Of a DNA stretch of 64,000 bases, positions 1,082 through 59,160 are shown piece by piece; the first letter of the stretch is position 1; each line of letters opens with the position of its first letter. Origin of the DNA: Mobula hypostoma (Eukaryota); contig NC_086097.1 in the NCBI RefSeq assembly GCF_963921235.1, positions 145,702,001 through 145,766,000 on the forward strand. Direction: 5' to 3'. Below the pieces are notes generated by a model. That model saw only the letters and a list, made by a program, of their open reading frames with translations. It was not told the origin of the DNA and made no database searches. The translations under genes and the position numbers were made by a program.

Positions 1082-4000
1082 ATGAGTTCTAAGGTACCGG
1101 AAAAGCCTAAAAGAGCTCGTAAGGGTGTTACACTTAGCGTAAAACTGGACATAATTAAGCGTTTCGATCGTGGTGAACGAAGTAAGGACATTGTCTGCGC
1201 GTTGATCTTGCCTGCATCCACCATTCGCACAATTTATATACAGACAGAAAGAATTTTGAAAGCTGCCAATGTTGCTGTTGGTTCTGATCGTAGCAAAGTG
1301 GTCTCTCTTAGTTGGCATCCAATAGTGGATAAAATGGAAAGTCTATTGCTTGAGTGGATTGATGGGTGTACAAAGCGTGGTGTTCCATTAAGTTTTCTTA
1401 TACTTAAGGAGAAATCAGTCAGTCTTTTTAATAAGCTGAAACAGAAAGCACTGGATGATACAAACATAGAAAATAGGTGCAGGAGTAGGCCATTCGTCCC
1501 TTCGAGCCTGCACCACCATTTAGTATGATCATGGCTGATCATCCAACTCAGAACCCTGTACCAGCCTTCCCCCCATACCCCCGATCCCTTTAGCCACAAG
1601 GGCCATATCTAACTCCCTCTTAAATATAGCCAATGAACTGGCCTCAACTGTTTCCTGTGGCAGAGAATTCCACAGATTCACCACTCTCTGTGTGAAGAAG
1701 TTTTTCCTCATCTCAGTCCTAAAAGGCTTCCCCTTTATCCTCAAACTGTGACCCCTCGTTCTGGACTTCCCCAACATCAGGAACAATCTTCCTGCATCTA
1801 GCCTGTCCAATCCCTTTAGGATTTTACATGTTTCAATAAGATCCCCCCTCAATCTTCTAAATTCCAACGAGTACAAGCCTAGTCGATCCAGTCTTTCATC
1901 ATATGAAAGTCCTGCCATCCCAGGAATCAATCTGGTGAACCTTCTTTGTACTCCCTCTATGGCAAGGATGTCTTTCCTCAGATTAGGGGACCAAAACTGT
2001 ACACAATACTCCAGGTGTGGTCTCACCAAGGCCTTGTACAAATGCAGTAGTACCTCCCTGCTCCTGTACTCGAATCCTCTTGCTATGAATGCCAGCATAC
2101 CATTCGCCTTTTTCACCGCCTGCTGTACCTGCATGCCCACTTTCAATGACTGGTGTATAATGACACCCAGGTCTCCTTGCACCTTCTCTTTTCCTAATCA
2201 GCCACCATTCAGATAATAATCCGTTTTCCTGTTTTTGCCACCAAAGTGGATAACCTCACATTTATCCACATTAAATTGCATCTGCCATGAATTTGCCCAC
2301 TCACCTAACCTATCCAAGTCACCCTGCATCCTCTTAGCATCCTCCTCACAGCTAACACTGCTGCCCAGCTTCATGTCATCTGCAAATTTGGAGATGCTGC
2401 ATTTAATTCCCTCATCCAGGTCATTAATATATCTTGTAAACAACTGGGGTCCCAGCACTGAGCCTTGCGGTACCCCACTAGTCACCGCCTGCCATTCTGA
2501 AAAGGTCCCGTTTATTCCCACTCTTTGCTTCCTATCTGCCAACCAATTCTCTATCCACATCAATACCTTACCCCCAATACCGTGTGCTTTAAGTTTGCAC
2601 ACTAATCCCCTGTGTGGGACCTTGTCAAAAGCCTTTTGAAAATCCAAATATACCACATCCACTGGTTCTCCCCTATCCACTCTACTAGTTACATCCTCAA
2701 AAAATTCTATGAGATTCGTAAGACATGATTTTCCTTTCACAAATCCATGCTTTGTCCAATGATTTCACCACTTTCCAAATGTGCTGTTATCACATCTTTG
2801 ATAACTGACTCTAGCATTTTCCCCACCACCGATGTCAGGCTAACCAGTCTATAATTCCCCGGTTTCTCTCTCCTTCCTTTTTTAAAAAGTGGGGGTTACC
2901 TTAGCCACCCTCCAATCCTCAGGAACTAGTCCAGAATCTAAAGAGTTTTGAAAAATTATCACTAATGCATCCACTATTTCTTGGGCTACTTCCTTAAGCA
3001 CTCTGGATGCAGACCATCTGGCCCTGGGGATTTATCCGCCTTTAATCCCTTCAATTTGCCTAACACCACTTCCCTACTAACATGCATTTCCCTCAGTTCC
3101 TCCATCTCACTGGACCCTCTGTCCCCTACTATTTCCAGAAGATTATTTATGTCCTCCTTAGTGAAGACAGAACCAAAGTATTTATTCAATTGGTCTGCCA
3201 TGTCCTTGCTCCCCATAATCAATTCACCTGTTTCTGTCTGTAGGGGACCTACATTTGTCTTAACCAATCTTTTTCTTTTCACACATCTATAAAAGCTTTT
3301 ACAGTCAGTTTTTATGTTCCCTGCCAGTTTTCTCTCATAATCTTTTTTCCCTTTCCTAATTAAGCCCTTTGTCCTCCTCTGCTGGACTCTGAATTTCTCC
3401 CAGTCCTCAGGTGAGCCACTTTCTCTGGCTAATTTGTATGCTTCTTCTTTGCAATTGACACTCTCCCTTGTCAGCCACGGGTGCACTACCTTCCTTGATT
3501 TATTCTTTTGCCAAACTGGGATGAACAATTGTTGTAGTTCATCCATGCGATCTTTAAATGCTTGCCATTGCATATCCACTGTCAACCCTTTAAGTGTCAT
3601 TTGCCAGTCTATCTTAGCTAATTCACGTCTCATACCTTCAAAGTTACCCTTCTTTAAGTTCGGAACCTTTGTTTCTGAATTAACTATGTTACTCTCCATC
3701 TTAATAAAGAATTCCACCATATTATGGTGTGTCGAAAGTGTTGCGAAAGTGGAATTTAAAAGTGGTCATGGGTGGTTTGATCGGTTTCTGAGGCGAGGGC
3801 AGCTTCATAGTTTAATGCTTACCAGAGAGTGCGCTTCGGCTGATACTGAAGCTGCCAAAAAGTTCCCAGCAGAACTGAAGAAAATAATTACAGAAAGTGG
3901 TTATTCCGATAAGCAAGTGTTTAACTGTGATGAAACTGCAATTTATTGGAAAAAATTGCCCAGCAAGACATTTACTTCGATAGAAGAAAAGCAGGCTAAG

Positions 4001-4645
4001 GGACACAAGGCATCAAAGGACAGGTTTACCCTCATGCCTAATATTAACGTCACTGGTGATGCAGTCCTTAAGCCTCTACTAGCGTACCGTTCAGAAACTT
4101 CGAGGGCACCTAAAGGCATCGATAAGAAAACACTTCCCGTTGTGTTCCGTTCACATCCAAGTGGTTGGAATACCCAAGTGCTTTTTTCTGAGTACATGAG
4201 TGGATACGTTAGCCCTTTTGTTGAAAAATACTGTAGAGACAATAACCTCGATAATAGGTGTCTTGTGATTGTCAATAATTGTCCACCTGGCATTACCGAG
4301 TATGGCAGTTAACATTCGTGTTGCGTTCTCACCGCCAAATACGACATCAATGCTGCAGCCATGCGACCAAGGCCTAATAGCCACAATTAAGGCTTACTAT
4401 AGGTAAAATGTGATGTGTTTTATTGTAAGTACCATTGACAGAGAGGGCAACTCCGAAGTGTCTTTACAAGAGGTCTGGAAAAAATGCAATATAAAATTGG
4501 CAATCGCCAACATTGGAGATGCTCTCGATAGGCTAACAGTCTCGATGAGAAATGGCGTTTGGAAGAAACGGTGTCCCGAAGCAGTGAATGACTTCAAAGG
4601 CTTCGAACCATCAACAACAAATATGGCAATAGTGAGTTTGGCTAC
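1082..4645 (+). pseudogene. pogo/Tigger (CENP-B-like HTH + DDE_1) transposase split by a CR1 insertion
   Basis: N-part 1082-1459 (TLSVKLDIIKRFDRGERSKDI...MESLLLEWI). C-part from ~3728 (FKSGHGWFDRFLRR, VFNCDET, GHKASKDRFTL), then frameshifted PPNTTSMLQPCDQG. The second catalytic Asp appears mutated (VIVNNCP). Confidence 0.9.
1460..3728 (-). mobile_element. 5'-truncated CR1 LINE (ORF2 reverse transcriptase)
   Basis: ORFs 2986-3720, 2198-2740 and 1529-2182: [52 protein letters not shown]. Short TTCTATG-type tail at ~1460. Confidence 0.95.
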
Positions 4646-5293
4646 TGTACATATATTATTTCTACAAACGTACTTTACATAGGCTGTGTATTTTCATGTC
4701 TTATTTGGTATGATTTGGCAGCTTCATAGCTTAAAGGTTACTGGAGAGTGTTTCTGCCCAGAGCGCTTGCGCTGAGAGTGCTGCCATGAGATTTTTGCTG
4801 AGCTAGACAGTGCAGAAAAGTATTTCTACTTTATATAGGCTGTGTATTTATCATATCATTCCTGCTTTTACTATATGTTACTGTTATTTTAGGTTTTATG
4901 TGTTATTTGGCATGATTTTGCAGGTTATTTTTTGGGTCTAGGAACGCTCAAAAATTTTTCCCATATTAATAAATGGTAATTGCTGATTCACTTTACCACA
5001 TTCTGGCTTACAAACCATTTCACAGGAACGCTCTACCTTCGGATCACGGGGGAAACCTGTATTATTTTTGTTTTGTACAATTTTAGAGTGAAGGGAAAGG
5101 AGCACCAGGCAAAAGTTTGGGCACCCCAAGAGATTTGAGCTCTCAGATAACTTCTACCAAGGTCTCAGACCTTAATTAGCTTGTTAGGGCTATGGCTTGT
5201 TCACAGTCATCGTTAGGAAAGGCCAGGTGATGCAAATTTCAAAGCTTTATAAATACCCTGACTCCTCAAACCTTGTCCCAACAATCAGCAGCC

Positions 5294-6310
5294 ATGGGCT
5301 CCTCTAAGCAGCTGCCTCGCACTCTGAAAATTAAAATAAATGATGTCCACAAAGCAAGAGAAGGCTATAAAAAGACAGCAAAGCGTTTTCAGGTAGCCGT
5401 TTCCTCAGTTCGTAATGTAATTAAGAAATGGCAGTTAACAGGAATGGTGAAGGTCAAGCTGAGGTCTGGAAGGTCGAGAAAACTTTCCGAGAGAACTGCT
5501 CGTAGGATTGCTAGAAAGGCAGATCAAAACCCCCGTTTGACTGCAAAAGACCTTCAGGAAGATTTAGCAGACTCTGGAGTGGTGGTGCACTGTTCTACTG
5601 TGCAGTGACACCCGCACAAATATGACTTTCATGGAAGAGTCATCAGAAGAAAACCTTTCCTGCGTCCTCACCACAAGATTCAGCATCAGAAGTTTGCAAA
5701 GGAACATCTAAACAAGCCTGATGCATTTTGGAAACAAACCCTGTGGGCTGAAGAAGCTAGAATAGAACTTTTTGGCCGCAATGAGCAAAGGTATGTTTGA
5801 AGAAAAAAGGGTGCAGAATTTCATGGAAAGAACACCTCTCCAACTGTTAAGCACGGGGGTGGATCGATCATGCTTTGGGCTTGTGTTGCAGCCAGTGGCA
5901 CAGGGAACATTTCACTGGTAGAGGGAAGAATGAATTCAATTAAATACCAGCAAATTCTGGAAGCAAACATCACACCGTCTGTAAAAAAGCTGAAGATAAA
6001 AAGAGGATGGCTTCTACAATAGGATAATGATCCTAAACACAACTCAAAATCCACAATGGACTACCTCAAGAGGTGCAAGCTGAAGGTTTTGCCGTGGCCC
6101 TCACAGTCCCTCGACCTAAACATCATCGAAAATCTGTGAATAGACCTCAAAAGTGCATGCAAGACGGTCCAAGAATCTCACAGAACTAGAAGTCTTTTGC
6201 AAGGAAGAATGGGCAAAACCCCCCAAACAAGAACTGAAAGACTCTTAGCTAGCTACAAAAAGCATTTACAAGCTGTCATACTGGCCAAAGGGGGTGTTAC
6301 TAAGTACTGA
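5294..6310 (+). pseudogene. Tc1 transposase pseudogene
   Basis: MGSSKQL...RSGRSRKLS (paired-like HTH and GRPR-like motif), [32 protein letters not shown], ending GGVTKY*. Several premature stops (e.g. TGA 5606-5608). Confidence 0.92.
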
Positions 6311-9367: not shown

Positions 9368-9837
9368 TACTCTAAATTGTCATTTATCAGTTTTTAAGCA
9401 CAATTTTGCTTTACTTACTTGTTGTAACTTACATTAGGTAGCAGTTCCATTATATCCAAAAGGGTGGAAATAAGGTTTATTTTAATGCAATATATCAGAC
9501 TTCAATTCTGATCAAGCAATGGGCATCAAGATTTATATTTTTAGATTCTTACAAATCCATTATTTTCTAAAATTCCAACCATTATCATAGATTGGCTTCT
9601 CAAAATAAAATGCACGTCTCAACCAAATTCAGGCAATATCAAATTTGATCACAATTCCAAAAAAAATGGATGTTGTTAACAGGGAAATAATACAAGGCAA
9701 TCTTATTGAAACAAGTAAGAAAATTGGAAATATTGAAAAACCTACTTTCCAAAATGTAGCTAGATGCTATTAATTTACAAAGAATAATAGAAATTATACA
9801 CAAAACATTATTTAAATACAAAATTATTTTGAGTATT

Positions 9838-10607
9838 AAACACAAAATGCCAGAGGAACTCAGCAAGTTAGGCAGCATCTGTGGAGGGGAATAAATAATT
9901 GATGTTTTAGTCAAGACCCTTCATTAGGATCGGAAAGGAATGGGACAGAAGCCAGAATAAGGAGGAGGGAGGGGAAGGAGTGCAAACTGACAGGTGATGA
10001 GAAAGGTAAGTAGGTAGGTAGGTGGGTGGGTGGGTGTGGGTGTGGGAGAATATCAGAAGCTGGGAGGGGCTAAGTGGAAGCGATAAAAGGCTGAAGAAGG
10101 AACCTGAGAGGGGAGGACAGTGGACAATGAAAGAAAGGGAAGGATGAAGGGAAGTTTCTCCACCTTCCAGTGGCATCTCCCCCACATCACCTCTCTTTCT
10201 GTATTCCTCATTCTAGTTACCCTTTCATCCATTCTCTTCTCATCACCTGCCCATCACCTCTTTCTCGTTCTCCCTCCTCCTTCCCCTTCCATGATTTACT
10301 GCCCTTTCCTATCATAGCACATCTTCAACCCTTTATCACAACTATTCCCTCCCATCTTCTAACTTTATTCCCACTCCCCCACTCACCTTGCGCCTCGCCC
10401 AGCCTCGCCTATAACCTACCAGTTTGCACACCTTCCCACCCCTACTTTCTTATTCTGGCTTCTGACCCTGCCTTCCTTTCCAGACATGATAATGGGTGTC
10501 AGCCAGAAACGTTGACTATTCATATTCTTCTTTAAATTTTACCTGACTTGCTCCACCACTGTGCGCCTTGCTCAAGATTGACAGCATCTACAGAATCTCT
10601 TGTGTTT
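9838..10607. mobile_element. Palindromic Penelope-derived non-autonomous element (two inverted terminal repeats)
   Basis: The left half resembles the Penelope end at 12784-13200 (purine-rich). The right half is its pyrimidine-rich inverted counterpart, with the centre near 10155. Both arms carry decayed hammerhead cores. Confidence 0.75.
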
Positions 10608-12404: not shown

Positions 12405-12783
12405 AGGGGTGGTGGGGAGGAGGTACATCCCTACCAAAGGAGGTGTAAAGCGCTCTTTCCCTCTGCTAGCCTGCAGGTCACCCTTGGGCAAGGAGTAGCA
12501 CCTACTTAGGCCTCCAGTTCCAGTCGCATGAAGTCATGGGAGCTGGTGGTGGATGGTCATATGAGCAACTAGTGCATACTACCAGTCCACTGACGCCAGG
12601 CAGACAACCTCTGAGGAGTATTGATAATGGCTGAGGTCACCCATCTTGTAAACACACTACACAGAAGAAGGCAATGGCAAACCACTTCTGTAAAAAAGAT
12701 TGTAAAGAATCATGATGGTCATGGATAGAGAAGATAGAAGGCCATGACCGTCCACGTCATACAACACGGCACATAACGATAAT
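12405..12783 (+). mobile_element. RTE-related SINE or LINE fragment
   Basis: GAAGAAGGCAATGGCAAACCACTTCTG (RTE/BovA-like motif). Its (GAT)n-type tail is split by the Penelope insertion and resumes at ~15306. Confidence 0.55.
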
Positions 12784-15292
12784 AACAGGAATTCTGCAGA
12801 TGCTGGAAATTCAAGCAACATACATCAAAGTTGCTGGTGAACGCAGCAGGCCAGGCAGCATCTATAGGAAGAAGCGCAGTCGACGTTTCAGGCCGAGACC
12901 CTTCGTCAGGACTAACTGAAGGAAGAGTGAGTAAGGGATTTGAAAGCTGGAGGGGGAGGGGGAGATGCAAAATGGTAGGAGAAGACAGGAGGGGGAGGGA
13001 TAGAGCCGAGAGCTGGACAGGTGATAGGCAAAAGGGGATACGAGAGGATCATGGGACAGGAGGTCCGGGAAGAAAGACAAGGAGGGGGGGGTGACCCAGA
13101 AGATGGGCAAAAGGTATATTCAGAGGGACAGAGGGAGAAAAAGGAGAGTGAGAGAAAGAATGTGTGCATAAAAATGAGTAACAGATGGAGTACGAGGGGG
13201 AGGTGGGGCCTTAGCGGAAGTTAGAGAAGTCAATGTTCATGCCATCAGGTTGGAGGCTACCCAGACGGAATATAAGGTGTTGTTCCTCCAACCTGAGTGT
13301 GGCTTCATCTTTACAGTAGAGGAAGCCGTGGATAGACATGTCAGAATGGGAATGGGATGTGGAATTAAAATGTGTGGCCACTGGGAGATCCTGCTTTCTC
13401 TGGCGGACAGAGCGTAGATGTTCAGCAAAGCGGTCTCCCAGTCTGCGTCAGGTCTCACCAATATATAAAAGGCCACATCGGGAGCACCGGACACAGTATA
13501 TCACCCCAGTCGACTCACAGGTGAAGTGATGCCTCACCTGGAAGGACTGTTTGGGGCCCTGAATGGTGGTAAGGGAGGAAGTGTAAGGGCATGTGTAGCA
13601 CTTGTTCCGCTTACACGGATAAGTGCCAGGAGGGAGATCAGTGGGGAGGGATGGGGGGGACGAATGGACAAGGGAGTTGTGTAGGGAGCGATCCCTGCGG
13701 AATGCAGAGAGAGGGGGAGAGGGAAAGATGTGCTTAGTGGTGGAATCCCGTTGGAGGTGGCGGAAGTTACGGAGAATAATATGTTGGACCCGGAGGCTGG
13801 TGGGGTGGTAGGTGAGGACCAGGGGAACCCTATTCCTAGTGGGGTGGTGGGAGGATGGAGTGAGAGCAGGTGTACGTGAAATGGGGGAGATGCGTTTAAG
13901 AGCAGAGTTGATAGTGGAGGAAGGGAAGCCCCTTTCTTTAAAAAATGAAGACATCTCCCTCGTCCTAGAATGAAAAGCCTCATCCTGAGAGCAGATGCGG
14001 CGGAGACGGAGGAATTGCGAGAAGGGGATGGCGTTTTTGCAAGAGACAGGGTGAGAAGAGGAATAGTCCAGATAGCTGTGAGAGTCAGTAGGCTTATAGT
14101 AGACATCAGTGGATAAGCTGTCTCCAGAGACAGAGACAGAAAGATCTAGAAAGGGGAGGGAGGTGTCGGAAATGGACCAGGTAAATTTGAGGGCAGGGTG
14201 AAAATTGGAGGCAAAGTTAATAAAGTCAACGAGTTCTGCATGCGTGCAGGAAGCAGCGCCAATGCAGTCGTCGATGTAGCGAAGGAAAAGTGCGGGATAG
14301 ATACCAGAATAGGCACGGAACATAGATTGTTCCACAAACCCAACAAAAAGGCAGGCATAGCTAGGACCCATACGGGTGCCCACAGCTACACCTTTAGTTT
14401 GGAGGAAATGGGAGGAGCCAAAGGAGAAATTATTAAGAGTAAGGACTAATTCCGCTAGACGGAGCAGAGTGGTGGTAGAGGGGAACTGATTAGGTCTGGA
14501 ATCCAAAAAGAAGCATAGAGCTTTGAGACCTTCCTGATGGGGGATGGAAGTATATAAGGACTGGACATCCATGGTGAAAATAAAGCGGTGGGGGCCAGGG
14601 AACTTAAAATCATCGAAAAGTTTAAGAGCATGAGAAGTGTCACGAACATAGGTCGGAAGGGATTGAACAAGGGGTGATAAAACAGTGTCGAGGTATGCAG
14701 AAACGAGTTCGGTGGGGCAGGAGCAAGCTGAGACAATAGGTCGGCCAGGACAGGCAGGTTTGTGGATCTTGGGTAGGAGGTAGAAATGGGAAGTGCAGGT
14801 GTGGGAACTATAAGGTTGGTAGCAGTGGATGGGAGATCCCCTGAGCGGATAAAGTCGGTGATAGTGTGGGAGACAATGGCCTGGTGCTCCTTAGTGGGGT
14901 CACGATCGAGGGGTAAATAAGAGGAAGTATCCGCGAGTTGTCGCTGCGCCTCGGCAAGGTAGAGGTCAGTACGCCAGACTACAACAGCACCCCCCTTATC
15001 AGCGGGTTTAATAATAAGGTTAGGATTAGTGCGGAGGGAGTGGAGAGCAGAGCGTTCCGAAGGAGTGAGGTTGGAATGGGGACAAGGTGCGGTGAAGTCG
15101 AGACGGTTGATGTCCCGTCGGCAGTTAGCAATAAAGAGATCCAGAGCAGGCAGAAGACCAGAGCGGGGTGTCCATGAAGAAGAGGAGGGTCGAAGACGGG
15201 AGAAGGGGTCATCTGTGGGGGTGGAAGAGTCCTTGCCGAAGATGTAGGCTCGGAGACGGAGACGGCGGAAGAAAAGTTCCGCATCATGGCGA
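12784..15292 (-). mobile_element. Penelope-like retroelement (RT + GIY-YIG endonuclease), 5'-truncated
   Basis: MDVQSLYTSIPH, QTKGVAVGTRMGPSYACLF, RYIDD, GVIYCVRCSRCGLLYIGET (GIY-YIG). Premature TGA at 13448, natural stop at 13211. 13-bp TSD ACATAACGATAAT at 12771-12783 and 15293-15305. Confidence 0.95.
12878..12913 (-). ncRNA. Minimal type-I hammerhead ribozyme in the Penelope terminal repeat
   Basis: Minus strand reads AGTC-CTGACGA-AGG(GTCTCGG)CCT-GAAA-CG-TC-GACT: stem I AGTC/GACT, core CUGANGA and GAAA, GUC cleavage triplet, vestigial stem III. Confidence 0.8.
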
Positions 15293-15365
15293 ACATAACG
15301 ATAATGATGAGTTTTCAGTCAGTGGAGTAAGATGAACCCAAAGATTGTGCTGAAGACTCTATGAG

Positions 15366-15670
15366 TGTTGGCGCTTGGCCAAATGGTTAAGGCGTCAGTC
15401 TAGTGAACTGAAGGTTGCTAGTCCGAGCCTCAGCTGAGGCAGCATGTTGTGTCCTTGTGTACTTAACCACACATTGCTCTGCGACGACACCGGTGCCAAG
15501 CTGTATCGGCCCTAGTGGCCTTCCCTTGGACAACATCAGTTGCGTGGAGAGGGAAGACTTGCAGTATGGGCAACTGCTGGTCTTCCTTACAACCTTGCCC
15601 AGGCCTGCACCCTGGAAACCTTCCAAGGCTCAAATCCATGGTCTCACGAGTCTAACGGATGCCTAAAAAA
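15366..15670 (+). mobile_element. tRNA-derived SINE
   Basis: A-box TGGCCAAATGG, degenerate B-box AGTCCGAGCC, A-rich tail. Its 3' part resembles 41940-42020. Confidence 0.65.
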
Positions 15671-19050: not shown

Positions 19051-20869
19051 AATTTATGTTTAATGTACGCTTTATGCTGCTTGTATGACACTATGTGCCT
19101 GTGATGTTGCTGCTAGTAAGTTTTTCATTGCACATGTGCATGCATGTGCTAGTGTGCATAAAAATTAACTCAATATCATTGAAATATGTCACAGTCCCTT
19201 CATCACCTCTTTATGTAAGACCAGGAACCCCCTCCCAACAACGCTGTGGGAGAACCTTCATCACAGTAGTTTAAGAAGAAGAAGAGAAAAAAGATGAACT
19301 CTCAATCTCCCAATCTAAATTGCCACGCCCTTTGCACTTTGTTTGTCTACTGACATTGAATTTCCCCAGTAACTGCAACAATATATTCCGCAGTGTATTC
19401 TTTTTACTACCTTGATGTAATCATATATGACATGATCTACCCAGATAACATGCAAAACACAGCTTTTCACTGTATTGCCCTACATAAAAAACTAATTACC
19501 AATTGTCCAAAATGTATTTTTTGGGGAGGATTCAAGTTCAGAAGTACCTTGTTAGCAAGCATTTGCCCCTGGTCATGGACCATAAATAGCTGATGGCAAT
19601 CTTTGGACCCAAGTTGTCTATTCTGATAATGGCTGCTGCATGAATGCAAACATGGCCTATCCTGTCATGACAACCAGAATGGTCCAAAAGGTCCCGCATC
19701 TTGAAGTAGCCCCTTACTGGTAATCTTTCACATTCTCCTCCCAGTGGTGCAGTCACATTCCTGAACACTTAATTCTACCTCTCCAATTATAACCACTTCG
19801 GTATTTCTTCTTGCGCTACATCCAGTTGCACAACTATATTTTTCACCATTCCATTGTTTAGCACGTGTTGCTCTATTTATGATTACCGCATATACTGTTT
19901 ACTCCGCCAGCTTCACACAAGCAAGGAATTTCATTGCACCCTGGTGTATATAACAATAAGCTAAAATGAATCTGAATCTGAATTTCTCTAAGCATCAATT
20001 TTCATAGCAAGACCTAATTTGAGTAGGGAATTATTCAATTGCAAGTTCTTGACAATGATGCAGCTGGGAGCAGTAATTGTACTGGTATTCCTTAACGGCA
20101 AGTGTGTGAATTGGGATGAACTGGAGTAAAAACACCTATCAGAATGAGAAAGGGAAATAGAAGTCTGTGTTACTTGGAATATTTTCCAAGTCTGACCAGA
20201 ATATTGTGTGCCCCTTTTCCACAAGTTGCTGTGCGAAACAGAGTTTTGATAGTGTGATGCCAGGGTTGCCCTGGTAATCACAGTGTTGATGGAGCCTTCT
20301 TGTTAATAAATTAATGAGGAGAATTTGAGGGAGAGTGAAAACAAATAACAGAGTTATTGCGGAATCTTAAAACTGAAAGGAGAATGTTGAGCAGATTAAG
20401 CAGTATCTGTGAGAGAGAAAAAATTAATTAGCATTACAGATGAAGTATGACTTGAGAGGAGAACTGATTAAAATAAGCTATCTGAAAATAATTGAATGCA
20501 AATTGAGTATCTATTCAATCTGCAAGGGTGACCCAGAGCTTTTATTTGCCTATCACTTTAATTTTAAAATGCATTCGCAGTCTGACCTCTGTCTTTGTAC
20601 TCACACACTATTCTAGATAAGTTCAGAGTAAGCCCAAGAAATTGCACCTCTGCTTCTGTTCTGAGATGCTAGTTTTTTGAACTCAACACTGACTTTAACA
20701 ATATCAAATGATCAACCATCCTAGTCTTCTTGCTAACAATTACAGCATTCAGTTCTTTGTTTTTATCTCTCTTCTTCTACATTGTCCAGACACACCATTG
20801 CTACGCTTTTAGCCAACATCACCACCATATGTGCAGTCTCCTGCCTTTCTGTTTCATTTCCAACTTAAG

Positions 20870-21085
20870 CAACACACACGAAATGCTGGAGGAAGTCAGT
20901 GAGTCAGGCAGCATCTGCAAAGGAATATAAACAGTCAACAGTTTTGGCCTGAGACCCCTCATTGACCCTTTCTTGAGACCTGATGAAAGGTCTTGGCCTG
21001 AAAGGTCAATAGTTTATTCCCCTCCATAGATGCTGCCGGACTTGCTGAGTTCTTCAAGATTTCTAGCATCTGCAAAATATTTTCT
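20870..21085. mobile_element. Short palindromic Penelope-derived element
   Basis: Inverted arms GGAAGTCAGTGAGTCAGGCAGCATCT / AGATGCTGCCGGACTTGCTGAGTTC. Plus-strand CTGATGA (20980) ... GAAA (21000). Confidence 0.75.
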
Positions 21086-21262
21086 TTTTATTTTTAACTT
21101 CTCTTGATTCTAATTAAAGTGAAGTAATTGCTTTGAAACATTGATTCAGTCTTCCTGCAGATGCCACCTGACTTGCTGAGTATTTCCAGCAATTTTGTTT
21201 CTATTTCATATACCCAGCTTTATATTTTATATTGGATAAAGCTTTAGATCAAGAGGGCTTAC

Positions 21263-24935: not shown

Positions 24936-25627
24936 GTACACAGTGACAGGACATAGGGGAACAAGTTGATCTATTATATTTCTTAGTATTCTGTGGATAT
25001 GCAACCTGGATTATTCTCTATCTGCTACAACCTATATTATTTTTTACTCAGTCATCTTTGAAAACCCAATCCGTCAGTCTTCAATTAACATTTTCCTTTC
25101 TTTAGGATGTCGTTGGTAAGTCAAACAGTGAAAAAAAAATATTAGCACAGATCTACATCTTTTCATTTTGCAGTATATTTCCATCTAAGGATAAAAATTG
25201 AAAATACTAGAAATATTCAAGGATAGGCAGAGTCGGTCGAGACGTAAACAAAAGCTATTCTTTTAGGTTGACAATGTTTCATTGATAAAAGGTCTCTGAC
25301 CTGAAATCTTAATTCTGATTCACTCTCCACAGATGCTGTCTGACTTGTTGAGCATTTCTAACATGTTTTGGTTTGTTTCAGATTTATAGCATCTGCTGCT
25401 TTGGTTTATCAATTGCCTTCCTAGGTTAACCTGCTGAGGTATTGGGCAATTCAATCCAAATCAAATTGATAACTAACTGAACAGATGTTTTGGCAAGTGA
25501 AACATGAGCTATCAATTTAAGGTATAAACCCATGCTGATCTTACCCCATGGGCCACTAGACTTCAGATATTCATGTGGAGTAGTTGCGAAGACTGCACTT
25601 TTGCATTATAAAACTGGAGTTCATTAC

Positions 25628-26563: not shown

Positions 26564-29500
26564 CATAGAAACACAGAAACATAGAAAACCTACAGCACAA
26601 CACAGGCTCTTCGGCCCACAAAGCTACGCCGAACCTGTCCTTACCTTAGAACTGCGTAGGCTTACACATAGGCCTCTTAAAAGACCCTGTCGTTTCCGCC
26701 TCCACCATTGCCGCCGGCAGCCCATTCCATGCACTCACCACTCTCTGCTTAAAAAACGTACCTTTGACATCTCCTCTGTACCTGCTTCCAAGCACCTTAA
26801 AACTATGCCCTCTTGTTCTAGCCGTTTCAGCCCTGGGAAAAAGCCTCTGACTATCCACACAATCAATGCCTCTCATTATCTTGTACATCTCTATCAGGTC
26901 ACCTCTCATCCTCCATCGCTCCAAGGGGAAAAGGCCAAATTCACTCAAACTATACTCATAAGGCATGCTCCCCGATCCAGGCAACATCCTTGTAAATCTC
27001 TTCTGCACCCTTTCTCTGGTTTCCACATCCTTCCTGTAGTGAGGCAACCAGAATTGAGCACAGTACTCCAAGTGGGGTCTGACCAGAGTCCTATATAGCT
27101 GTAACATTACCTCTCGGCTCCTAAACTCAATCCCACGATTGATGAAGGCCAATGCACCATATGCCTTCTTAACCACAGAGTCAACCTGCACAGCAGATTT
27201 GTGTGTCCTATGGACTCGGACCCCAAGATCCCTCTGATCCCCCACACTGCCAAAAGTCTTACCATTAATGCTATATTCCACCATCGTATTTGACCTACTA
27301 AAATAAACCACCTCACACTTATCTGGATTGAACTCCATTTGCCACTTCTCAGCCCAGTTTTGCATCCTATCAATGTCCCGCTGTAACCTCTGACAGCCCT
27401 TCACACTGGCCGCAACACCCCAACCTTTGTGTCATTAGCAAATTTACTAACCCATCCCTCCACTTCCTCATTCAGGTCATTTATAAAAATCACGAAGAGT
27501 GAGGGTCCCAGAACAGATCCTTGAGGCTCACCACTGGTGACCGACCTCCATACATAATATGACTCGTCTACAACCACTCTTTGCTTTCTGTGGGCAAGCC
27601 AGTTCTGGATCCACAAAGCAATGTCCCCTTGGATCCCATGCCTCCTTACTTTCTCAATAAGCCCTGCAGGGGGTACCTTATCAAATGCCTTGCTAAAATC
27701 CATTTACTCTACATCTACGGCTCTACCTTCATCAATGTGTTTAGTCACATCCTCAAAAAATTCTATCAGCCTTGTAAGGCATGACCTGTCATGCTGACTA
27801 TTCCTAATCATATTATGCTTCTCCAAATGTTCATAAATCCTGCCTGTCAGGATTTTCTCCATCAACTTGCTAAACACTGAAGTAAGGCTCACTGGTCTAT
27901 AATTTCCTGGGCTATCCCCACTCCTTTTCTTGAATAAGGGAACAACATCAGCAACCCTCCAATCCTCTGGAACCTCTCCCGTCCCCATTGATGATGGAAA
28001 GATCATCGCAGGAGGCTCAGCAATCTCCTCCCTTCCTTCACACAGTAGCCTGAGGGACGTCCCGTCCAGTCCCAGTGACTTATCCAACTTGATGCTTTCC
28101 AAAAGCTCCAGCACATCCTCTTCCTTAATATCTACATCCTCAATCTTTTCAGTCCGCTGCAAGTCATCCCTACAATTGCCAAGACGCTTTTCCGTAGTGA
28201 ATACTGAAGCAAAGTATTCATTAAGTATCTCTGCTATCTCCTCCAGTTCCATACACACTTTTCCACTGTCACATTTGATTGGTCCTATTCTCTCACATCT
28301 CTTGCTCTTCACTTACTTGTAGAATGCCTTGGGGTTTTCCTTAATCCTGTCTGCCAAGGCCTTCTCATGACCGCTTCTGGCTCTCCTAATTTCATTCTTA
28401 AGCTCCTTCCTGCTAGCCTTATAAACTTCTATATGTCTACCATTACCTAGTTTTTTGAACCTTTTGTAAGCTCTTCTTTTCTTCTTAACTAGATTTACAT
28501 CAGCATTTGTACACCACGGTTCCTGTACCCTACCATCCTTTCCCCGTCCCATTGGAACGTACCTATACAGAATGCCACACAAATATCCCCTGAACATATG
28601 CCACATTTCTTCCGTACGCTTCCCTGAGAACATCTGTTTCCAATTTATGCTTCCTAGTTCCTGCCTGATAGCCTCATATTTCCCCTTACTCCAATTAAAC
28701 GTTTCCGTAACCTGTCCGTTCCTTTCCCTCTCCAATGCTATGGTAAGGGAGATAGAGTTGTGATCACTATCCCCAAAATGCTCTCCCACTGAAAGATGTG
28801 ACACCTGACCAGGTTCATTTGCCAATACCAGCCTCTCCTCTTGTAGGCTTATCTACATATTTTGTCAATAAACCTTCCTGAAGACACCTAACAAACTCTA
28901 CCCCATCTAAACCCCTCAGTCTAGGGAGATGCCAATCAATATTTTGGAAATTAAAATCTCCCACCACAACAACGCTGTTATTATTATTCCTTTCCTGAAT
29001 CTGTCTCCCTATCTGCTCCTCGATGTCCCTGTTACTATTGGGTGGTCTATAAAAAATACCCAGTAGAGTTATTGACCCCCTCCTATTCCTAACTTTCACC
29101 CACAGAGACTCCGTAGACAACCCCTCCATGACCTCTTCCTTTTCTGCAGCTGTGACACTATCTCTGATCAACAGTGCCATGCCCCCAGCTCTTTTGCCTC
29201 CCTCCCTGTCGTTTCTGAAACATCTAAAGCCTGGCACTCGAAGTAGCCATTCCTGCCCCTGCACTATTCAAGCCTCTGTAATGGCCACAACATCATAGCT
29301 CCAAGTGCTGATCCACGCTCTAAACTCATCCACTTTATTCATAATGCTCCTTGCATTAAAATAGACACATCTCAAATCATCGGTCTGAGTGCGTCCCTTC
29401 TCTATCATCTGTCTATCCTCCCTCACACACTGTCGCCAAGCTGTCACTATTTGTGAACCAACCTCCCTTTCCTCCGTCACTTCAGTTCAGTTCCGACCCC

Positions 29501-30703
29501 AGCAATCCTGGTTTAAACTCTCCTCAATAGCTTTTGTAAACCTCCCCACCAGGATATTGGTCCCCTTGGGATTCAAGTGCAACCCATCCTTTTTGTACAG
29601 GTCACACCTGCCCCAGAAGAGGTCCCAATGATCCAGAAATCTGAATCCCTGCCCCCTGTTCCAATCCCTCAGACACGCATCTATCCTCCACCTCATTCTA
29701 TTCCTATACTCACTGTCATGTGGCACAGGCGGTAATCCCAAGATTACTATCTTTGAGGTCCTGCTTCTCAACTTCCTTCCTAACTCCCTGTAGTCTGTTT
29801 TCAAGACCTCCTCCTTTTTCCTACCTATGTCGTTGGTACCAATATGTACCACGACCTCTGGCTATTCTCCTTCCCACTTCAAGATATCGTAGATGCGATC
29901 ATAAACATCCCGGACTCTGGCACCTGGGAGGCAAACTACCATCTTCATTTCTTTCCTGTGTCCACAGAATTGCCTGTCTGACCCCCTAACTATAGAGTAC
30001 CCTATTACTGCTGCCATCCTCTTCATTTCCCTACCCTTCTGAGCCACAGCGCCAAGCTCTGTGCCGGAGGCACGACCACTGTTGTTTCCCCCAGGTAGGC
30101 CGTCTCCCCCAAGGGTACTCAAACAGGAGTACTTCCTTCCCTCTCCTGACTTATCTGTCTCCCGAGACCCTGGAGTAACTACCTGCCTATAGCTCTTCTC
30201 TATGACCTCCTCACTCTCCCTGACCAGACAAAGGTCATTGAGCTGCAGCTTTGGTTCCCTAACACGGTCTCTGAGGAGCTGCAGCTTGATGCACCAAGTG
30301 CAGATATGGCCATCTGGGAGGCTGGAAATCTCCAGGACTTCGCACATCTGACACTGAGCACAGAAAGCTGGCCTCACACACATATTTTCTGTCTGTATTC
30401 TAAACTGATAACCTACCTCGCCTCGATCCCTCATCACTGAAGCCGCATTGAGCCAAAGCCTTCCTGCTCTGTCTCCCTCTACTCTGACACCCACTGTATA
30501 AAGCTGTCCTCTTTTTAAACTCTTCTCGCTGTTCTCACTGGCCGACCTACACACGCTTGCACAGTCGTGCCCTGTTCAAACCGCTGAAGAAATAACCGTC
30601 ACCTTTTAAGCTCTGCTTGTTTTTAAACTCTTCCCGTTGTTCTCACTGGCCAACCTGCACGCGCTTGCTCAGTTGTGCCCCGTTCAAATTGCTGAAGAAA
30701 TAA
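26564..30703 (-). mobile_element. Near full-length CR1 LINE (zinc-finger + SGNH esterase ORF1, APE-RT ORF2) with premature stops
   Basis: CAQCQM...HICTWC, IGYSIVRG, VHIGTNDIG, DGLHLN, CVYFNARSI, VAITE, YRPP, VGDFN, DSDHN, RT motifs. (TTTCTATG)n tail at 26564. Inserted in an older CR1 fragment. Confidence 0.95.
30512..30703 (-). repeat. Tandem ~108-bp-period repeats in the CR1 5' UTR
   Basis: TTTTTAAACTCTTC..TGTTCTCACTGGCC...GCTGAAGAAATAA occurs at 30512-30595 and 30620-30703. Confidence 0.85.
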
Positions 30704-33993: not shown

Positions 33994-35664
33994 CTAAAAG
34001 TCAGAGGATTGAGGTAAAAAGCAATTCCTATATGCCTTACATTGATAAACAATTCCCATTTGCCCCTGAATTAACATATCACCAAATCAGTACTACAATG
34101 TTGCCAAGACCTGAGAGCTCGAGTTATAGGGAAAGGTTGGGCAGGCGAGCACTTTATTCCTTAGCATGTAGGAGATGAAAAGGAGAACTTAGAAAAGTAT
34201 ATGCAATCATGTGGAGCATGAATAGGATGAATGCATGGAATCTTTTTCCTGGGAAAGGGAGTCAAAAAATAGAGGGCATAGGTTTAAGGTGGAAAGATTT
34301 AAGCAGGACCTGAGTAGCAATTTCTTCATGCAGAGAAGAAATATTGAATGAGTTGCCAGAGAAGTAGTCGATACAACAACAACATTTAAAAGGCACTTGG
34401 ACAGGTTCATGGAACGGAAATGTATGGAGGTACTGTATATGCACCAAATGAAGGCAAATGGAACTAGCTTAGATAGGTGTGATGGTTGGCATGGATGAGT
34501 TGGGCCAGAGGTTCTGGTTCCGTGTTGTATTTCACCCTAAAGCTGTGGCCTCTGCTATTTGACACATCCACTCTTGTAACAAGACTCTGACTACCTACCC
34601 TATCATAATTTGGCATGTTTCTATATGTTCATAGTCATAGCCATACTTTATTGATCCCGGGAGGGAAATTAGCTTCTGCAGCTCCAGAGAAAACAATACA
34701 AATCTGCCCAATCTCTCCTTATAGCTTGTAAGGCAACCTTGTGTGCTGGCTCCATGGCACCGAATTAGCCTCCTTTCTTTAACCTCCATGAGGTAAGGGA
34801 GGAGAAATAAAATCAGCCATCATTCTCATGGCTGAGCATTACTTGGTTGCTTTCTACAGAAAATTTACAGTGGATAAATATTTACTGAAACCAGTATAAC
34901 TTTTATTTACATTATGCCTTTTCTGATATTAAACTATCCCAAAGTACTTAACAGACAATGAAGTACTTTGAAAGTACAATAATTATTGTTTTCACAAAAT
35001 CACTGAATGGTTACAGCGAAGAAGGAAGCCAATCTGTCTGCGTGGCCACACTGGTTCTACTAACAGCAGTTCAGCCTTTTCCTATAGCCCTAGAGACTCT
35101 TTCTTCTCAGGTACTATCCACTCCCTTTTAAGTGCTACAATTGAATCTGTCTCCACACTACTCTTGACTATGGACTCCAAGTAACAAACCTTTATCTGAG
35201 GAAAATAAAAACACTTAGTCATGTTCTTAGTCCTTCCCCCTATAAATTGCTTGGGTCCAAGTACCATAACCCCATTCTGAAATCTCGGTCATCAAGCCGT
35301 GGAAAATGATTGGTCTTTAGTATCATTAACTTCTCTTGGCACTTAGCCCCATGGTAGGTATCTACCTAATCTATGCCTTTCCTTATATTAAATACTGCCA
35401 TCCGAGGTTCCAGCATCTCTTCTCTATTCACAAACTGCAACTCCCTCATCCTTGCAGTCATTTTGGTCAGTCTTTCCTGGATCATCTCTAAATAAGTACC
35501 AGAAATATGAAAGAACCAAGGGCCTATTGAGAGCAAAGAATCAAAGATAGAAGAATGGAGTTGGTGCTGCCCCACACCTGTGTTCACTTAGCAAGACAAA
35601 GGACTCAGGGTCTGGACTATATACATATATATTTTGCGTGATTTCATTTTACTGATATCCTACA

Positions 35665-37614
35665 GAGGATTGGGAAGTTTTTAAAAGCTTACAAAAGGAA
35701 ACTAAGAAGGTCATTAAGAAGGAAAAGATTAACTATGAAAGGAAGCTAGCAAATAATATCAAAGAGGAAACTAAAAGCTTATTCATGTATATAAAGAGTA
35801 AAAGACAGGTGCGAGTAGATATAGGACCGATAGAAAATGGTACTGGAGAAATTGTAATGGGAGATAAGGAGATGGCAGAGGAACTGAACGAGTATTTTGC
35901 ATCAGTTTTCACTGAGGAAGACATCAGCAGTATACCGGACACTCAAGGGTGGCAGGGAACAGGAGTGTGTGCAGTCACAATTAAGACAGAGAAAGTACTC
36001 AGGAAGCTGAATAGTCTAAAGGTCGATAAACCTCCCGGACCAGATGGAATGCACCCTTGTGTTCTGAAGGAAGCAGCTTTGGAGATTGCGGAGGCATTAG
36101 CGATGATCTTTCAAAAGTCGATAGATTCTAGCAGGGTTCCGGAGGACTGAACGATTGCCAATGTCACTCCGCTATTTAAGAAGGGGGCAAGGAAGCAAAA
36201 GAAAATTATAGACCTGTTAGCTTGACGTCAGTGGTTGGGAAGTTGTTGGAATCGATTGTCAAGGATGAGGTTACAGAGTACCTGGAGGCATATGACAAGA
36301 TAGGCAGAACTCAGCATGGTTTCCTTAAAGGAAAATCCTGCCTGACAAACGTATTACAATTTTTTGAGGAAATTACCAGTAGGCTAGACAAGGGAGATGC
36401 AGTGGATGTTGTATATTTGGATTTTCAGAAGGCCTTTGACAAGGTGCCACACATGAGGCTACTTAACAAGATAAGAGCCCATGGAATTATGGGAAAGTTA
36501 CATACGTGGATAGAGCGTTGGCTGTTTGGCAGGAAACAGAGAGTGGGAATAAAGGGATCCTATTCTGGTTGGCTGCCGGTTACCAGTGGTGTTCCACAGG
36601 GGTCCGTGTTGGGGCCACTTCTTTATACATTGTACTTCAACAATTTGGATTATGGAATAGATGGCTTTGTGGCTAAGTTTGCTGATGATACAAAGATTAG
36701 TGGAGGGGCTGGTAGTGCTGAGGAAACAGAGAGTCTGCAGAGAGACTTGGATAGATTGGAAGAATGGGCAAAGAAGTGGCAAATGAAGTACAATGTTGAT
36801 AAGTGTATGGTTATGCTCTTTGGCAGAAGAAATAGATGGGCAGACCATTATTTAAATGGGGAGAGAATTCGAAGTTCTGAGATGCAACGGGACTTGGGAG
36901 TCCTCGGGCAGGATACCCTTAAGGTTAACCTCCAAGTTGAGTCGGTGGTGAAGAAGGCGAATGCAATGTTGGCATTCATTTCTAGAGGAATAGAGTATAG
37001 GAGCAGGGATGTGATGTTGAGGCTCTATAAGGCGCTGGTAAGACCTCACTTGGAGTACTGTGGGCAGTTTTGGTCTCCTTATTTAAGAAAGGATGTGCTG
37101 ACGTTGGAGAGGGTACAGAGAAGATTCACTAGAATAATTCCAGGAATGAGAGGGTTAACATATGAGGAACGTTTGTCCACTCTTGGATTGTATTCCTTGG
37201 AGTTTAGAAGAATGAGGGGGGACCTCATAGAAACATTTCAAATGTTGAAAGGCATGGACAGAGTGGATGTGGCAAAGTTGTTTCCCATGATGAGGGAGTC
37301 CAGTACGAGAGGGCATGACTTAAGGATTGAAGGGTGCCCATTCAGAACAGAAATGCGAAGAAATTTTTTTAGCCAGAAGGTGGTGAATCTATGGAATTTG
37401 TTGCCACTGGCAGCAGTGGAGGCCAAGTCATTGAGTGTATTTAAGGCAGAGATTGATAGGTATCTGAGTAGCCAGGGCATCAAAGGTTATGGTGAGAAGG
37501 CAGGGGAGTGGGACTAAATGGGAGAGTGGATCAGCTCATGATAAAATGGCGGAGCAGACTCTATGGGCCGAATGGCCGACTTCTGCTCCTTTGTCTTATG
37601 GTCTTATGGGCTTA
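35665..37614 (+). mobile_element. Young 5'-truncated CR1 LINE
   Basis: Open 431-aa RT/C-terminal ORF 36222-37517 with one upstream TGG>TGA at 36148. (TCTTATGG)n tail. Same subfamily as the CR1 at 47146-53808. Confidence 0.95.
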
Positions 37615-39422: not shown

Positions 39423-40964
39423 CTGAAGGGAAAGCAGGAAAGATTTCCTTCAATATAACACCTTTCACAATCACAGGAAACCTTAAAGCATCTTACCAGT
39501 TAATTAAGGAGTTCTGCAATGCTGTATTTTTTCTGCAATGCTGCTTTTAATTGTGGATTGTTACTTTCTATTTCCTATGTGATGTTCCAAAGTAGAAAAT
39601 GCAGTTAAAGTTCAGCTTTATTTCTCACATCTACATTGAAACATGCAAATGAAATCAGGGAAGATTGTCTGGACAGCCTACAAGTGTCGCCACATTTCCA
39701 ACACCAATGTGGCATGCAGACAACTCAGTAACCCAAATCCTACAAGAGATTGTGCTAACCACTGCACTATCACGTCATCAGTTTGCATGTAACTGTCCTT
39801 CATGGTGCAGGGGGAAAACTAGCCAGATTTAGTCTGCTTTACTAATATAGATTGAGGGATAAATATTGGTTAGGATAACATCACACAGGGAATAAGAAAT
39901 AACTATCCATAATTAAGTACAAAAATATGCATGGGAAGAGTCTCACTTTTAAGTGGAACAAAAAGGGGGGACATTGTCCAAACCACCTCGGCTGTCCCAG
40001 CTACCTGCATCTTTTCATTGGATAGACACTCATTTGGCACCCAGGAATTACTCCAGTGGGCTAAGGCATCAGCAAGTGAGAATCCCATCAAAGTGGAAGC
40101 TTCCTATGGTGAAACTGCAACTGATTATCCAAAGATGGGAATTCAGAATTTAAAGGAATTTAAAGCTAAAAAATGATGTAAATTCTCAAACGTTACACTG
40201 TTCGACAAATATACAGGGTCTGAAAAGAAACGACTACAAATACATCTCTGTGACAAATATCAACCCTGCATTTCCTGCTGCTATCTGTTATCCAAAAACA
40301 ATAAACTGGGCTGTCCTGGTAGACCCTTTGTTTCTGGCTGCTCCTGCACCACTGATCTCCTCATACCTCAACTCCATACTAATTCCCCTACACTCTAGAT
40401 ACTTCTCATGCCCTCCATCATTCTGATCATTTGAGTACTGATTTAGGGTTCCAACTATAACATCAACAAGTCCTTTCCCACAGCAGATGCTGCTTGATTT
40501 ACTGAGATCCTCCAGCAGATAGCTTATTGCACTATTCTTCGCATGATCCAAAGGATGTGGCCAGTGTTTAGAAAGGAATGCATTCAAAGTTAAATATAGT
40601 TCACTGAATGAGTTATGCAACTGAATCCTAGGCCAGTGATTAATATAAAGTTCAATATATACCAAATAAGCTTATTCCTTTAAACAAAAACACATGGTTG
40701 CAACGAGTAAGTGTGCACCCACAACTCTTCACCACTAAGAGTTTTTCTTACTTGACATCTGTATCTGTTGCAGATTCATGGATGGAAATTAATTATTATG
40801 ATGAAGTAATAATTCTAATTGTGTTATATCGTATCACTGTAGGAAGTAGGAAACCAAACTGATTTTGCACATTATTTGTCAAAACATTAATTCCTACATC
40901 GGTTTAATAAGTTACAATACAGTGGTTATAGTCTAAATTTGAAATTGCAAAGCTTTGTCATCAC

Positions 40965-43534: not shown

Positions 43535-43611
43535 CTGCCATGGCCAGCTGTGTGGCACTGCCTCGTGTCCACCAATAACACGCCCTGTGAGCGGGTTTGC
43601 AGCTATAGCCC
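43535..43611 (-). CDS. Chymotrypsin-like elastase, exon 2 (propeptide and activation site)
   Basis: 77 nt: AIAANPLTGR|VIGGHEAVPHSWPWQ. Phases 1/0, donor GTAAGC. Confidence 0.96.
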
Positions 43612-49043: not shown

Positions 49044-49078
49044 GTCGACATTTCGGGCCGAGACCTTTCGTCGGGACT
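49044..49078 (-). ncRNA. Hammerhead ribozyme copy with a mutated core
   Basis: AGTC-CCGACGA-AAGGTCTCGGCCC-GAAA-TG-TC-GACA. CUGA>CCGA substitution. Confidence 0.6.
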
Positions 49079-51801: not shown

Positions 51802-51837
51802 AGTCCTGACGAAGGGTCTCAGCCTGAAACGTCGACT
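51802..51837 (+). ncRNA. Minimal type-I hammerhead ribozyme (intact core)
   Basis: AGTC-CTGACGA-AGG(GTCTCAG)CCT-GAAA-CG-TC-GACT. Confidence 0.8.
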
Positions 51838-57947: not shown

Positions 57948-59160
57948 CTCAAAGACACAAGGGGTACTGCAGATGCTGGAAATCTAGAGCAATACACACA
58001 ATGTGCTGGAGGAGCTCAGCAGGTCAGGCAGCATCTACGGATGGGAATAAACAGTTGGCGTTTCAGGCTGAGACCTTTCATCAGGACCCGAGACGGAGGG
58101 GGAAGAAATCAGAAAAAGGAGGTGGGGGAGAGGAGGAAGAAGTACAAGGAGGCAGGTGATAGGTGAAATCGAGAGAGGGGAAGGGGGTAAAGTAAAGAGC
58201 TGGAAGGTTGATTGCTGGAAGAGATAAACGGCTGGGGAAGGGAGAATCTGACAGGAGAGGACAGAAACCATGGAAGGAAGGGAAGTGGGAGGAGCACCAG
58301 AGGGACATGATGGGCAGGTAGGAAGAGAATGTGTGAGAGGGAAACAAGAACGGGGAATGCTGAAGAAGAGGACAGAGCAGCGATTACCTGAAGTTCGAGA
58401 AATCGATGTTTATGCCATCAGGTTGGAGGCTACCCAGACAGAATATAAGGTGTTGCATTTCCACCTGAGTGAGGTCTCATCATGGCAGTAGAGGAGGCCA
58501 ATGACTGACCTGTTGGAATGGGAATGGGAAGTGGAACTAAAGTGGGTGGCCACCAGGAGATCCTGCTTTTACTGACAGATAGAGTGAAGGTGCTTGGCGA
58601 AGCAGTCTCCCAGTCTATGTAGGGTCTCTCCAAGATACAGGAGGCTACACTGGGAGCACCAGATACAGTAGATGATCCCAACAGGCTCACAGATGAAGTG
58701 TCACCTCACCTGAGAGGACTGATTGGGGCCCTGAATAGTAGTGAGGGAGGAGGTGTAGGGTCAGGTGTGGTATGTGTTCCACTTGCAAGGATAAGTACTG
58801 GGAGGGAGATCGGGGGGTGGGAGGGACGAGTGGACAAAGGAATTGCGTAGGGAGCGGAAAGTGGAAAGTGCGAGGGTGGGAAAGATGTGTTTGGTGGTGG
58901 GATCCTGTTGGAGATGGCAGAAGTTACGGAGAATTATGTGCTGGATGCAGGGGCTGATAGGGTGGTAGGCGAGGACAAGAGGAACCCTATCCCTGGTGTG
59001 GCAGTGGGTGGATGGGATGAGGGCAGATGTGCACAAAATGGAAGAGATGCAGGAGGGGGCAGTATTGATGGTGGAGGAAGGGAAGCCCCTTTCTTTGAAG
59101 AAGGAGGACATCTCAGTTGTTCTTGAATGAAAAGCCTCATCCTGAGAACAGATGTGGCGG
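57948..59160 (-). mobile_element. Older 5'-truncated Penelope-like element
   Basis: MSSFFKERGFPSSTIN...VPLVLAYHP, decayed GIY-YIG, terminal repeat with CTGATGA...GAAA (~58052-58088). Confidence 0.88.

Follow-up and report, generated by a model that had tools for sequence, protein, structure and literature searches.

A Neptune-type Penelope-like element of the ray Mobula hypostoma with a minimal type-I hammerhead motif in its terminal repeat

Introduction

The pseudo-LTRs of Penelope-like elements (PLEs) from metazoans, fish Neptune PLEs among them, have been described as carrying minimal hammerhead ribozymes (min-HHRs) (Cervera and de la Pena, 2014; PMC4209133). In the account given there, PLE min-HHRs show no activity as monomers and low activity as dimers, and a G10.1-C11.1 pair is typical and "highly conserved," though not strictly required. 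Natural hammerheads with other pairings at 10.1-11.1 are reported to exist (PMC3088659). In the PLE of the green anole, which belongs to the Poseidon clade, cleavage is described as protein-assisted and dispensable for insertion, with unprocessed RNA serving as the main template, and no RNA-seq ends are reported at the cut site (Frangieh et al., 2024; PMC11167929). Neptune-type PLEs are defined, in the description of Craig et al. (2021; PMC8557442), by a CX2-5CxxC linker together with CCHH residues. Furthermore, vertebrates are described as having non-LTR retrozymes that originate from the terminal repeats of PLEs and carry type-I hammerheads, one cartilaginous fish in the survey text carrying PLE-derived hammerheads (bioRxiv 10.64898/2026.07.22.740005).

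The DNA considered here is a stretch of 64,000 nucleotides from contig NC_086097.1 of the ray M. hypostoma (hereafter the window, in whose numbering all coordinates are given). A 36-nt motif with an intact core, which an initial annotation had placed at 12878-12913 (minus strand) and 51802-51837 (plus strand), was confirmed at both positions by the sequence and by a structural descriptor, and on sequence grounds it belongs to the PLE minimal hammerheads, a kind published in 2014. The reading favored here is that the PLE min-HHR would likely cut slowly and in the transcripts of tandem master copies only, with the scattered window copies likely being inert passengers.

The focal element and its hammerhead motif

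The focal element, E1, is a 5′-truncated PLE with only one terminal repeat, at its 3′ end, occupying 12784-15292 on the minus strand and flanked by a 13-bp target-site duplication (12771-12783 on the 3′ side and 15293-15305 on the 5′ side). Its reverse transcriptase (RT) and GIY-YIG ORF (13214-15292, minus strand) is broken by a frameshift near 14790 and a stop at 13448-13450. The ORF contains a CX4CX2C linker, a CxxC within GIY-YIG, and two His residues downstream (the CCHH residues)—that is, both the CX2-5CxxC RT-endonuclease linker and the GIY-YIG CCHH set—and the linker columns are conserved. The RVT_1 Pfam match to E1 scored 25.9 bits, under the 29.6 cut-off; the protein has 1287 homologues, the best of them from Mobula and Hypanus (76-94% identity), followed by sharks and marine invertebrates (~50-57%). 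E1 is thus classed as a Neptune-type EN+ PLE, the clade name resting on these motifs. The clade of the anole Poseidon element is described as being without a Zn-finger linker, unlike the ray element (PMC11167929). Just outside E1, at 15369-15433 (plus strand), lies a weak tRNA-like match (29.2 bits) that is probably a SINE head.

Read along the minus strand, the motif at 12878-12913 consists of AGTC (5′ arm of stem I), CTGACGA (core), an additional A, stem II (4 bp, closed by a 4-nt loop), GAAA, CG, TC, and GACT (3′ arm of stem I), with the scissile bond predicted between 12882 and 12881; one additional A gives the best register of the structural descriptor on the intact copies. The second intact motif, at 51802-51837 (plus strand), differs at 1 of the 36 bases, within loop II, and lies 39 kb away on the opposite strand. 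Both are identified by sequence, descriptor, and covariance model, and both show the CUGANGA ... GAAA ... UH core with type-I closure by stem I, a G10.1-U11.1 pair, and a palindromic ACGU where helix III and loop III would otherwise stand, in support of the earlier proposal of a minimal type-I hammerhead in which the palindrome replaces helix III. The proposed location in a PLE terminal repeat is also supported, the motif lying ~300 nt 3′ of the ORF stop codon and 98 nt from the E1 3′ end, and the core being found on the sense side in distant relatives.

In what is described of the min-HHRs of Cervera and de la Pena (2014; PMC4209133), the type-I topology, the CUGANGA/GAAA core, the additional nucleotide between 9 and 10.1, the palindromic 15.2-16.2, the lack of loop III, and a stem I of 4-5 bp are all shared with the ray motif, as are the sense location in terminal repeats, the mostly solitary copies, and the opposite-strand pairs. 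The differences are that the host here belongs to the rays, which do not appear among the hosts named in the account used here, that both intact ray copies carry G10.1-U11.1 rather than G-C, and that stem II has 4 bp, versus 7-8 bp in Schistosoma (PMC4209133). Whereas the Poseidon hammerhead is described as overlapping the ORF start (PMC11167929), the ray one lies past the stop codon, well away from the ORF start.

The stretch from the hammerhead to the element end (12784-12870, minus strand) is well conserved in the sequencing runs described below and folds into nested hairpins (folding z-score −1.55); it is a candidate RT binding or start structure.

Terminal-repeat copies in the window

The bare pattern CTGANGA..GAAA matched the window 12 times, versus a shuffled mean of 7.1, with 12 reached in 2 of 100 shuffles, and is therefore barely above chance and uninformative alone. 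The full structural descriptor, which requires both stems, had no matches in the 64 kb other than the two intact copies. The covariance model R1, trained on alignment A3 alone (14 non-window PLE hammerheads), gave E-values of 5.9e-7 and 3.4e-6 for the two intact copies (rough calibration), and the top 5 of its 17 window matches at E ≤ 10 were 51800-51839, 12876-12915, 49041-49080, 58051-58090, and 20980-21007; the covariance-model check suggested in the initial annotation thus ranked the four copies listed there first in the window. An Rfam covariance-model scan of the window yielded no hammerhead match among its 2 hits at E ≤ 1, in agreement with the earlier statement that standard annotation does not label the motif.

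A profile HMM search at E ≤ 4e-5 gave 14 terminal-repeat matches in the window, of which 6 were its own seeds; the reversed window gave no match. The decayed copies thereby added to the original four indicate a family denser than had been seen at first. The motif is intact in 2 of the 14 matches; the other 12 fail the descriptor, their motif being decayed or absent. With the intact pair so far apart and on opposite strands, the earlier claim of an abundant self-cleaving RNA family goes too far. Neither intact motif has a same-strand intact partner within the window, no tandem master copy was found in the window, and no head-to-tail tandem hammerhead array occurs among the 14 matches. Retrozymes are described as head-to-tail tandem arrays (bioRxiv 10.64898/2026.07.22.740005), whereas the short window units are solitary or head-to-head.

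E2 as a whole spans 48948-51902 within a CR1-like LINE and combines a minus-strand main body (48948-51493), 93% identical to E1, with an inverted plus-strand 5′ terminal-repeat arm (51494-51902) from which the tail is absent, so that its two motifs are antiparallel. It is bounded by a 13-bp target-site duplication (48935-48947 and its partner 51903-51915); the duplications are exact, at 13 bp, in 2/2 bounded copies (E1 and E2). Relative to a homologue of 749 residues, both bodies are missing the first 45-57 codons, and neither has a direct 5′ repeat. Their 5′ truncations (15292 and about 51493) lie within ~45 nt of each other, in what is possibly a truncation hot spot. E3 (57961-59162, minus strand) is an older-subfamily PLE fragment, ~78% identical to E1.

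The hammerhead copies of the E2 body and E3 are dead. In the former (49043-49078, minus strand), 5 of the 36 bases are changed, including U4C in the core, G10.1A, and C15.2U, and the terminal stem I pair is broken, with C11.1 retained; the mutated core reported in the initial annotation was upheld, but the copy starts at 49043, not 49044, and is more heavily damaged than claimed. In the latter (58053-58088, minus strand), 6 of the 36 bases are changed and the pair at 10.1-11.1 is A-U; the mutation reported in the cleavage triplet is U16.1C.

The remaining copies are short. S1 (20864-21080, decayed motif at 20976-21011, plus strand) is a very small head-to-head pair of terminal-repeat ends, with 7 nt between its arms, each of which starts at the 5′ edge of the hammerhead; S2 (9828-10599, decayed motif at 10482-10517, plus strand) is a head-to-head pair of older terminal repeats; and S3 (60321-60632) is another very small head-to-head pair, its join falling at the 5′ edge of the hammerhead. 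In the left arm of S3, the hammerhead is interrupted by ~100 bp (60400-60500) matching the LINE 3′ ends of the window. A target-site duplication of at least 7 bp was sought around S1-S3, and none was found. Old, decayed terminal-repeat ends on the plus strand are S4 (25283-25396, with A10.1-U11.1), S5 (40431-40522, adjoining an RT fragment at 40258-40390), and S6 (21135-21198), and a terminal-repeat 3′ tip (tail) occurs alone at 59647-59679 (minus strand). A putative S4 left arm, with a score of 33 versus a shuffle maximum of 32, was not significant and is uncounted.

The surroundings of these copies include other mobile elements and a host gene. CR1-like LINE copies with a GDSL-esterase-like ORF1, endonuclease, and RT are found at 45415-54056, 35656-37608, 1529-3765, and 26646-30575, E2 sitting in one of them. 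The sequences at 1025-1528, 3341-4312, 5231-5605, and 61107-61646 (+) are taken by us to be Tigger/pogo-like and Tc1-like DNA transposase remnants; 5231-5605 (+) gives Pfam HTH matches, and the 1025-1528 remnant is split by a LINE insertion. An elastase/chymotrypsin-C-like serine protease gene runs on the minus strand, with exons from ~43610 to 21263, namely near 43580 (RVIGG), 42750 (AAHC), 33900, 25750, and 21415 (GDSGGP); its first and last exons were looked for in the window and not found.

E1 has the same orientation as this gene and lies 8 kb downstream of the last exon located. That orientation, the frequency of intact copies (two in 64 kb), and the thousands of related contigs in three of the four sequencing runs could be taken to mean that the dispersed intact copies form an active self-cleaving family, which would cut host transcripts and pair in trans through its abundance. 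However, E1 could not be placed inside a host transcript, the monomer is predicted to fold into a rod, and the rates given in published descriptions are low even for dimers; for the anole element, no RNA-seq ends are reported at the cut site (PMC11167929). A trans-active family of this kind is considered very improbable.

The 3′ ends lie 98 nt (E1), 99 nt (E2 body, with tail), and 69 nt (E2 arm, no tail) past the predicted cut, and in all four head-to-head pairs (E2 and S1-S3), one arm has the ~30-nt tail and the other does not, as measured for E2 and judged by eye for S1-S3. The two tail-separated 3′ ends downstream of the hammerhead and the extension of copies through the cut site resemble what is described for the anole Poseidon PLE (Frangieh et al., 2024; PMC11167929), and in one case, E1, the first bases of the duplication on the element strand are ATT, resembling the nick motif given as preferred for Poseidon (PMC11167929). 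As in canonical EN+ PLE insertions, as far as these are described by Craig et al. (2021; PMC8557442) and Arkhipova et al. (2013; PMC3846280), there are a 5′ truncation, an inverted 5′ arm, a tail of 30-40 bp on one arm only, and short target-site duplications, although these are 13 bp here (2/2), versus the 8-10 bp given there for rotifers, and the very short pairs here, unlike the canonical insertions, begin at the hammerhead edge.

The four pairs with one tailed and one tail-less arm, together with the S1 and S3 arms, all of which start at the hammerhead 5′ edge, lend themselves to a different reading, in which the hammerhead fold is kept mainly as an RNA-RNA pairing or RT-stop module, uniting two template RNAs for two-ended, twin-primed insertion, with cleavage secondary. 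It would also accord with the anole PLE protein, which is reported to cut and extend both strands in vitro and to need no ribozyme cleavage for insertion, and for which a dimer is predicted. Against it, the inversion junctions of E2 and S2 are located 250-500 nt 5′ of the motif, self-priming is the published interpretation of palindromes found where PLE copies are joined in inverted orientation (PMC3846280), and Naiad PLEs are described as making inverted structures without hammerheads (PMC8557442). Taken with the evidence on this point from the relatives and the sequencing runs given below, this reading is regarded as unlikely.

Conservation in distant relatives

A total of 80 metagenome loci, probably invertebrate host DNA judging from the homologue list, were retrieved with a protein alignment; 43 had an endonuclease match and 31 extended for at least 350 nt past the ORF. 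The exact core was found on the sense strand after the ORF in 12/31 loci, versus 0/31 antisense (Fisher p 1.3e-4), and the core with at most one mismatch in 18/31, versus 0/31 (Fisher p 2.2e-7), the 31 loci not being independent, since several come from the same families. No core within one mismatch occurs in 13 of the 31 relatives. A search of viral contigs gave no match to a family pattern, and none of the 86 candidate stretches there proved to be a protein relative.

The stem I arms are wholly different between families, and still complementary. In 13 distinct arm sets, picked on the core and CG only, 43 of 52 stem I cells are paired, whereas 20,000 permutations gave 21.4 on average and 37 at most; with no stem filter applied, this is a fairer test than alignment A3. 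The latter (14 rows) comprises the 18 downstream loci minus six, namely the mutated copies L003, L019, L020, L029, and L060 and L006, a duplicate of L002, plus L012 and L015. It shows two-sided changes in 8/9 pairs and 87% of cells paired, versus 60% when shuffled, with 8/14 rows stem-selected. When the inner dinucleotide was left free, CG was found in 17 of 19 structured motifs, the ACGU palindrome thus being kept, as would also be expected of a pairing module. Inverted 5′ arms also occur among these relatives, with the hammerhead in antisense ahead of the ORF, at L002:1054-1093, L038:2256-2295, L012:1167-1205, and L005:34-58 (all minus strand).

Preferential conservation of the core and covariation of the stems, by which the initial annotation was to be judged, were both found (in the 31 loci, in A3, and in runs X1 and X5, respectively described above and below). 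The fixed sense-strand position and the compensatory stems across distant PLE families, and the recovery of the window copies by a model built on other loci, weigh heavily against the motif being a chance look-alike or a wholly non-functional relic with no selected RNA structure. The missing Rfam match, the near-chance frequency of the bare core pattern, and a folding z-score of only −1.0 for the motif are in keeping with such a relic, but this possibility is already largely refuted and is assigned a negligible probability.

Variation among relatives in sequencing runs

Related contigs were drawn from four public runs (X1, X5, X9, and X13), numbering 22 in X9 and 5238, 5648, and 1414 in the other three, and are of uncertain kind; the depths given are summed over contigs, the variants are those in the listed rows, and placement favors reference-like copies. 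In 4/4 runs, diverged relatives leave the reference at 12877 and 12913, the edges of the motif. In X1 and X5, CpG changes breaking the core, the palindrome, or the triplet make up 2-5% of depth, whereas tolerated changes are commoner, with N7 at 6% and 12% and flanking sites at 17-85%; G8A must lie below 3% in these two runs, since all C>T places of at least 3% are accounted for by the listed rows. In X13, the core-breaking CpG changes reach 19-24%, similar to N7 (22%), CpG sites throughout being changed at about 20%, and thus give no selection signal. Taken together, the stem covariation across distant PLE families and core-breaking changes near the CpG background indicate that the motif was under selection in master elements. 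The conservation of the catalytic residues G12 and G8 also argues against a role in pairing only, for which they are unneeded.

The joints listed for the runs bear on the pairing alternative as well. Four of the 22 listed joint endpoints fall within 12910-12913 (binomial p 6e-4 versus uniform, for an interval picked post hoc), as would be expected if copying halted at the motif; yet old-subfamily similarity stops at 12913 regardless, biasing joint calls. Run X1 shows one low-depth 119-nt joint of the "goes back" type, and no start or end pile-ups of contigs are listed in the four runs.

The pair at 10.1-11.1 is G-U in both intact window copies, A-U in three older window copies, and G-C in 17/17 structured non-window motifs. 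Among the relatives, U at 11.1 accounts for 81% (X1), 70% (X5), 68% (X9, 22 contigs), and 31% (X13) of depth, and C11.1 for 19-69% across runs, whereas G12A, the CpG partner change of U11.1, stays at 2-3% in X1 and X5. The excess of U11.1 (81% and 70%) over G12A in these two runs points to U11.1 being fixed in the master element rather than arising by copy decay. By its nucleotides, the G10.1-U11.1 motif is a variant inside the PLE min-HHR family. A published effect of G10.1-U11.1 on the rate was not found in the literature searched; loss of G-C at 10.1-11.1 in the dominant young variant could mean weaker or relaxed catalysis.

Folding and proposed mechanism

The monomer is predicted to fold into a rod in which the core GACG is paired with CGUC (−11.0 kcal/mol), versus −7.0 kcal/mol for the hammerhead-compatible fold, and a swapped, active-type dimer is predicted at −11.5 kcal/mol, versus −22.0 for two rods and −30.3 for an inactive duplex; nearest-neighbor energies of this kind are blind to tertiary contacts of the core. 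The predicted rod, the low activity published for PLE min-HHRs, and the anole results together suggest that cutting in tandem masters would be slow and regulated. The passenger status of the window copies is suggested by the intact fraction of 2/14, by E1 being solitary between its duplications, by the antiparallel motifs of E2, and by the favored monomer rod.

Following published PLE work, two repeats of one tandem transcript would exchange strands by way of their ACGU palindromes, forming helix III; the element's own protein would probably assist helix III formation or cutting; and a cut after the GUC triplet would process the multimeric RNA. The copies suggest that reverse transcription would begin ~69 or 98 nt 3′ of the cut site and pass through an uncut or re-ligated hammerhead, the insertion templates probably being uncut or re-ligated because the long copies run past the cut site. 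The motif would be copied passively by each insertion reaching that far, and its abundance may be explained in this way, rather than by per-copy selection.

If the fold were instead kept for pairing, an option given a low probability here, the PLE hammerhead would act as a dimerization signal, with two template RNAs kissing through the ACGU palindrome. An RT dimer would then copy the tail-plus and tail-minus starts into two nicked target strands, both copies would halt at the hammerhead 5′ edge to give tiny head-to-head insertions, and the young ray subfamily would have spread with a weakened G-U because selection keeps pairing, not cutting. Slow cutting in tandem masters, with passive copying of the motif, remains the preferred account.

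Implications

In the literature listings searched, no printed account of such a family in sharks or rays was found; Repbase/Dfam, papers behind subscription, and the supplementary files of PMC4209133 and the 2026 preprint may list motifs from these animals. The M. hypostoma element adds a cartilaginous-fish Neptune family to a known class, and shows that Rfam misses the motif. The family is young and present in many copies, has natural G-C, G-U, and A-U pairs at 10.1-11.1, two defined 3′ ends, and short inverted insertions, and is well suited to asking whether PLEs spread through cleavage, through dimer pairing, or through neither.
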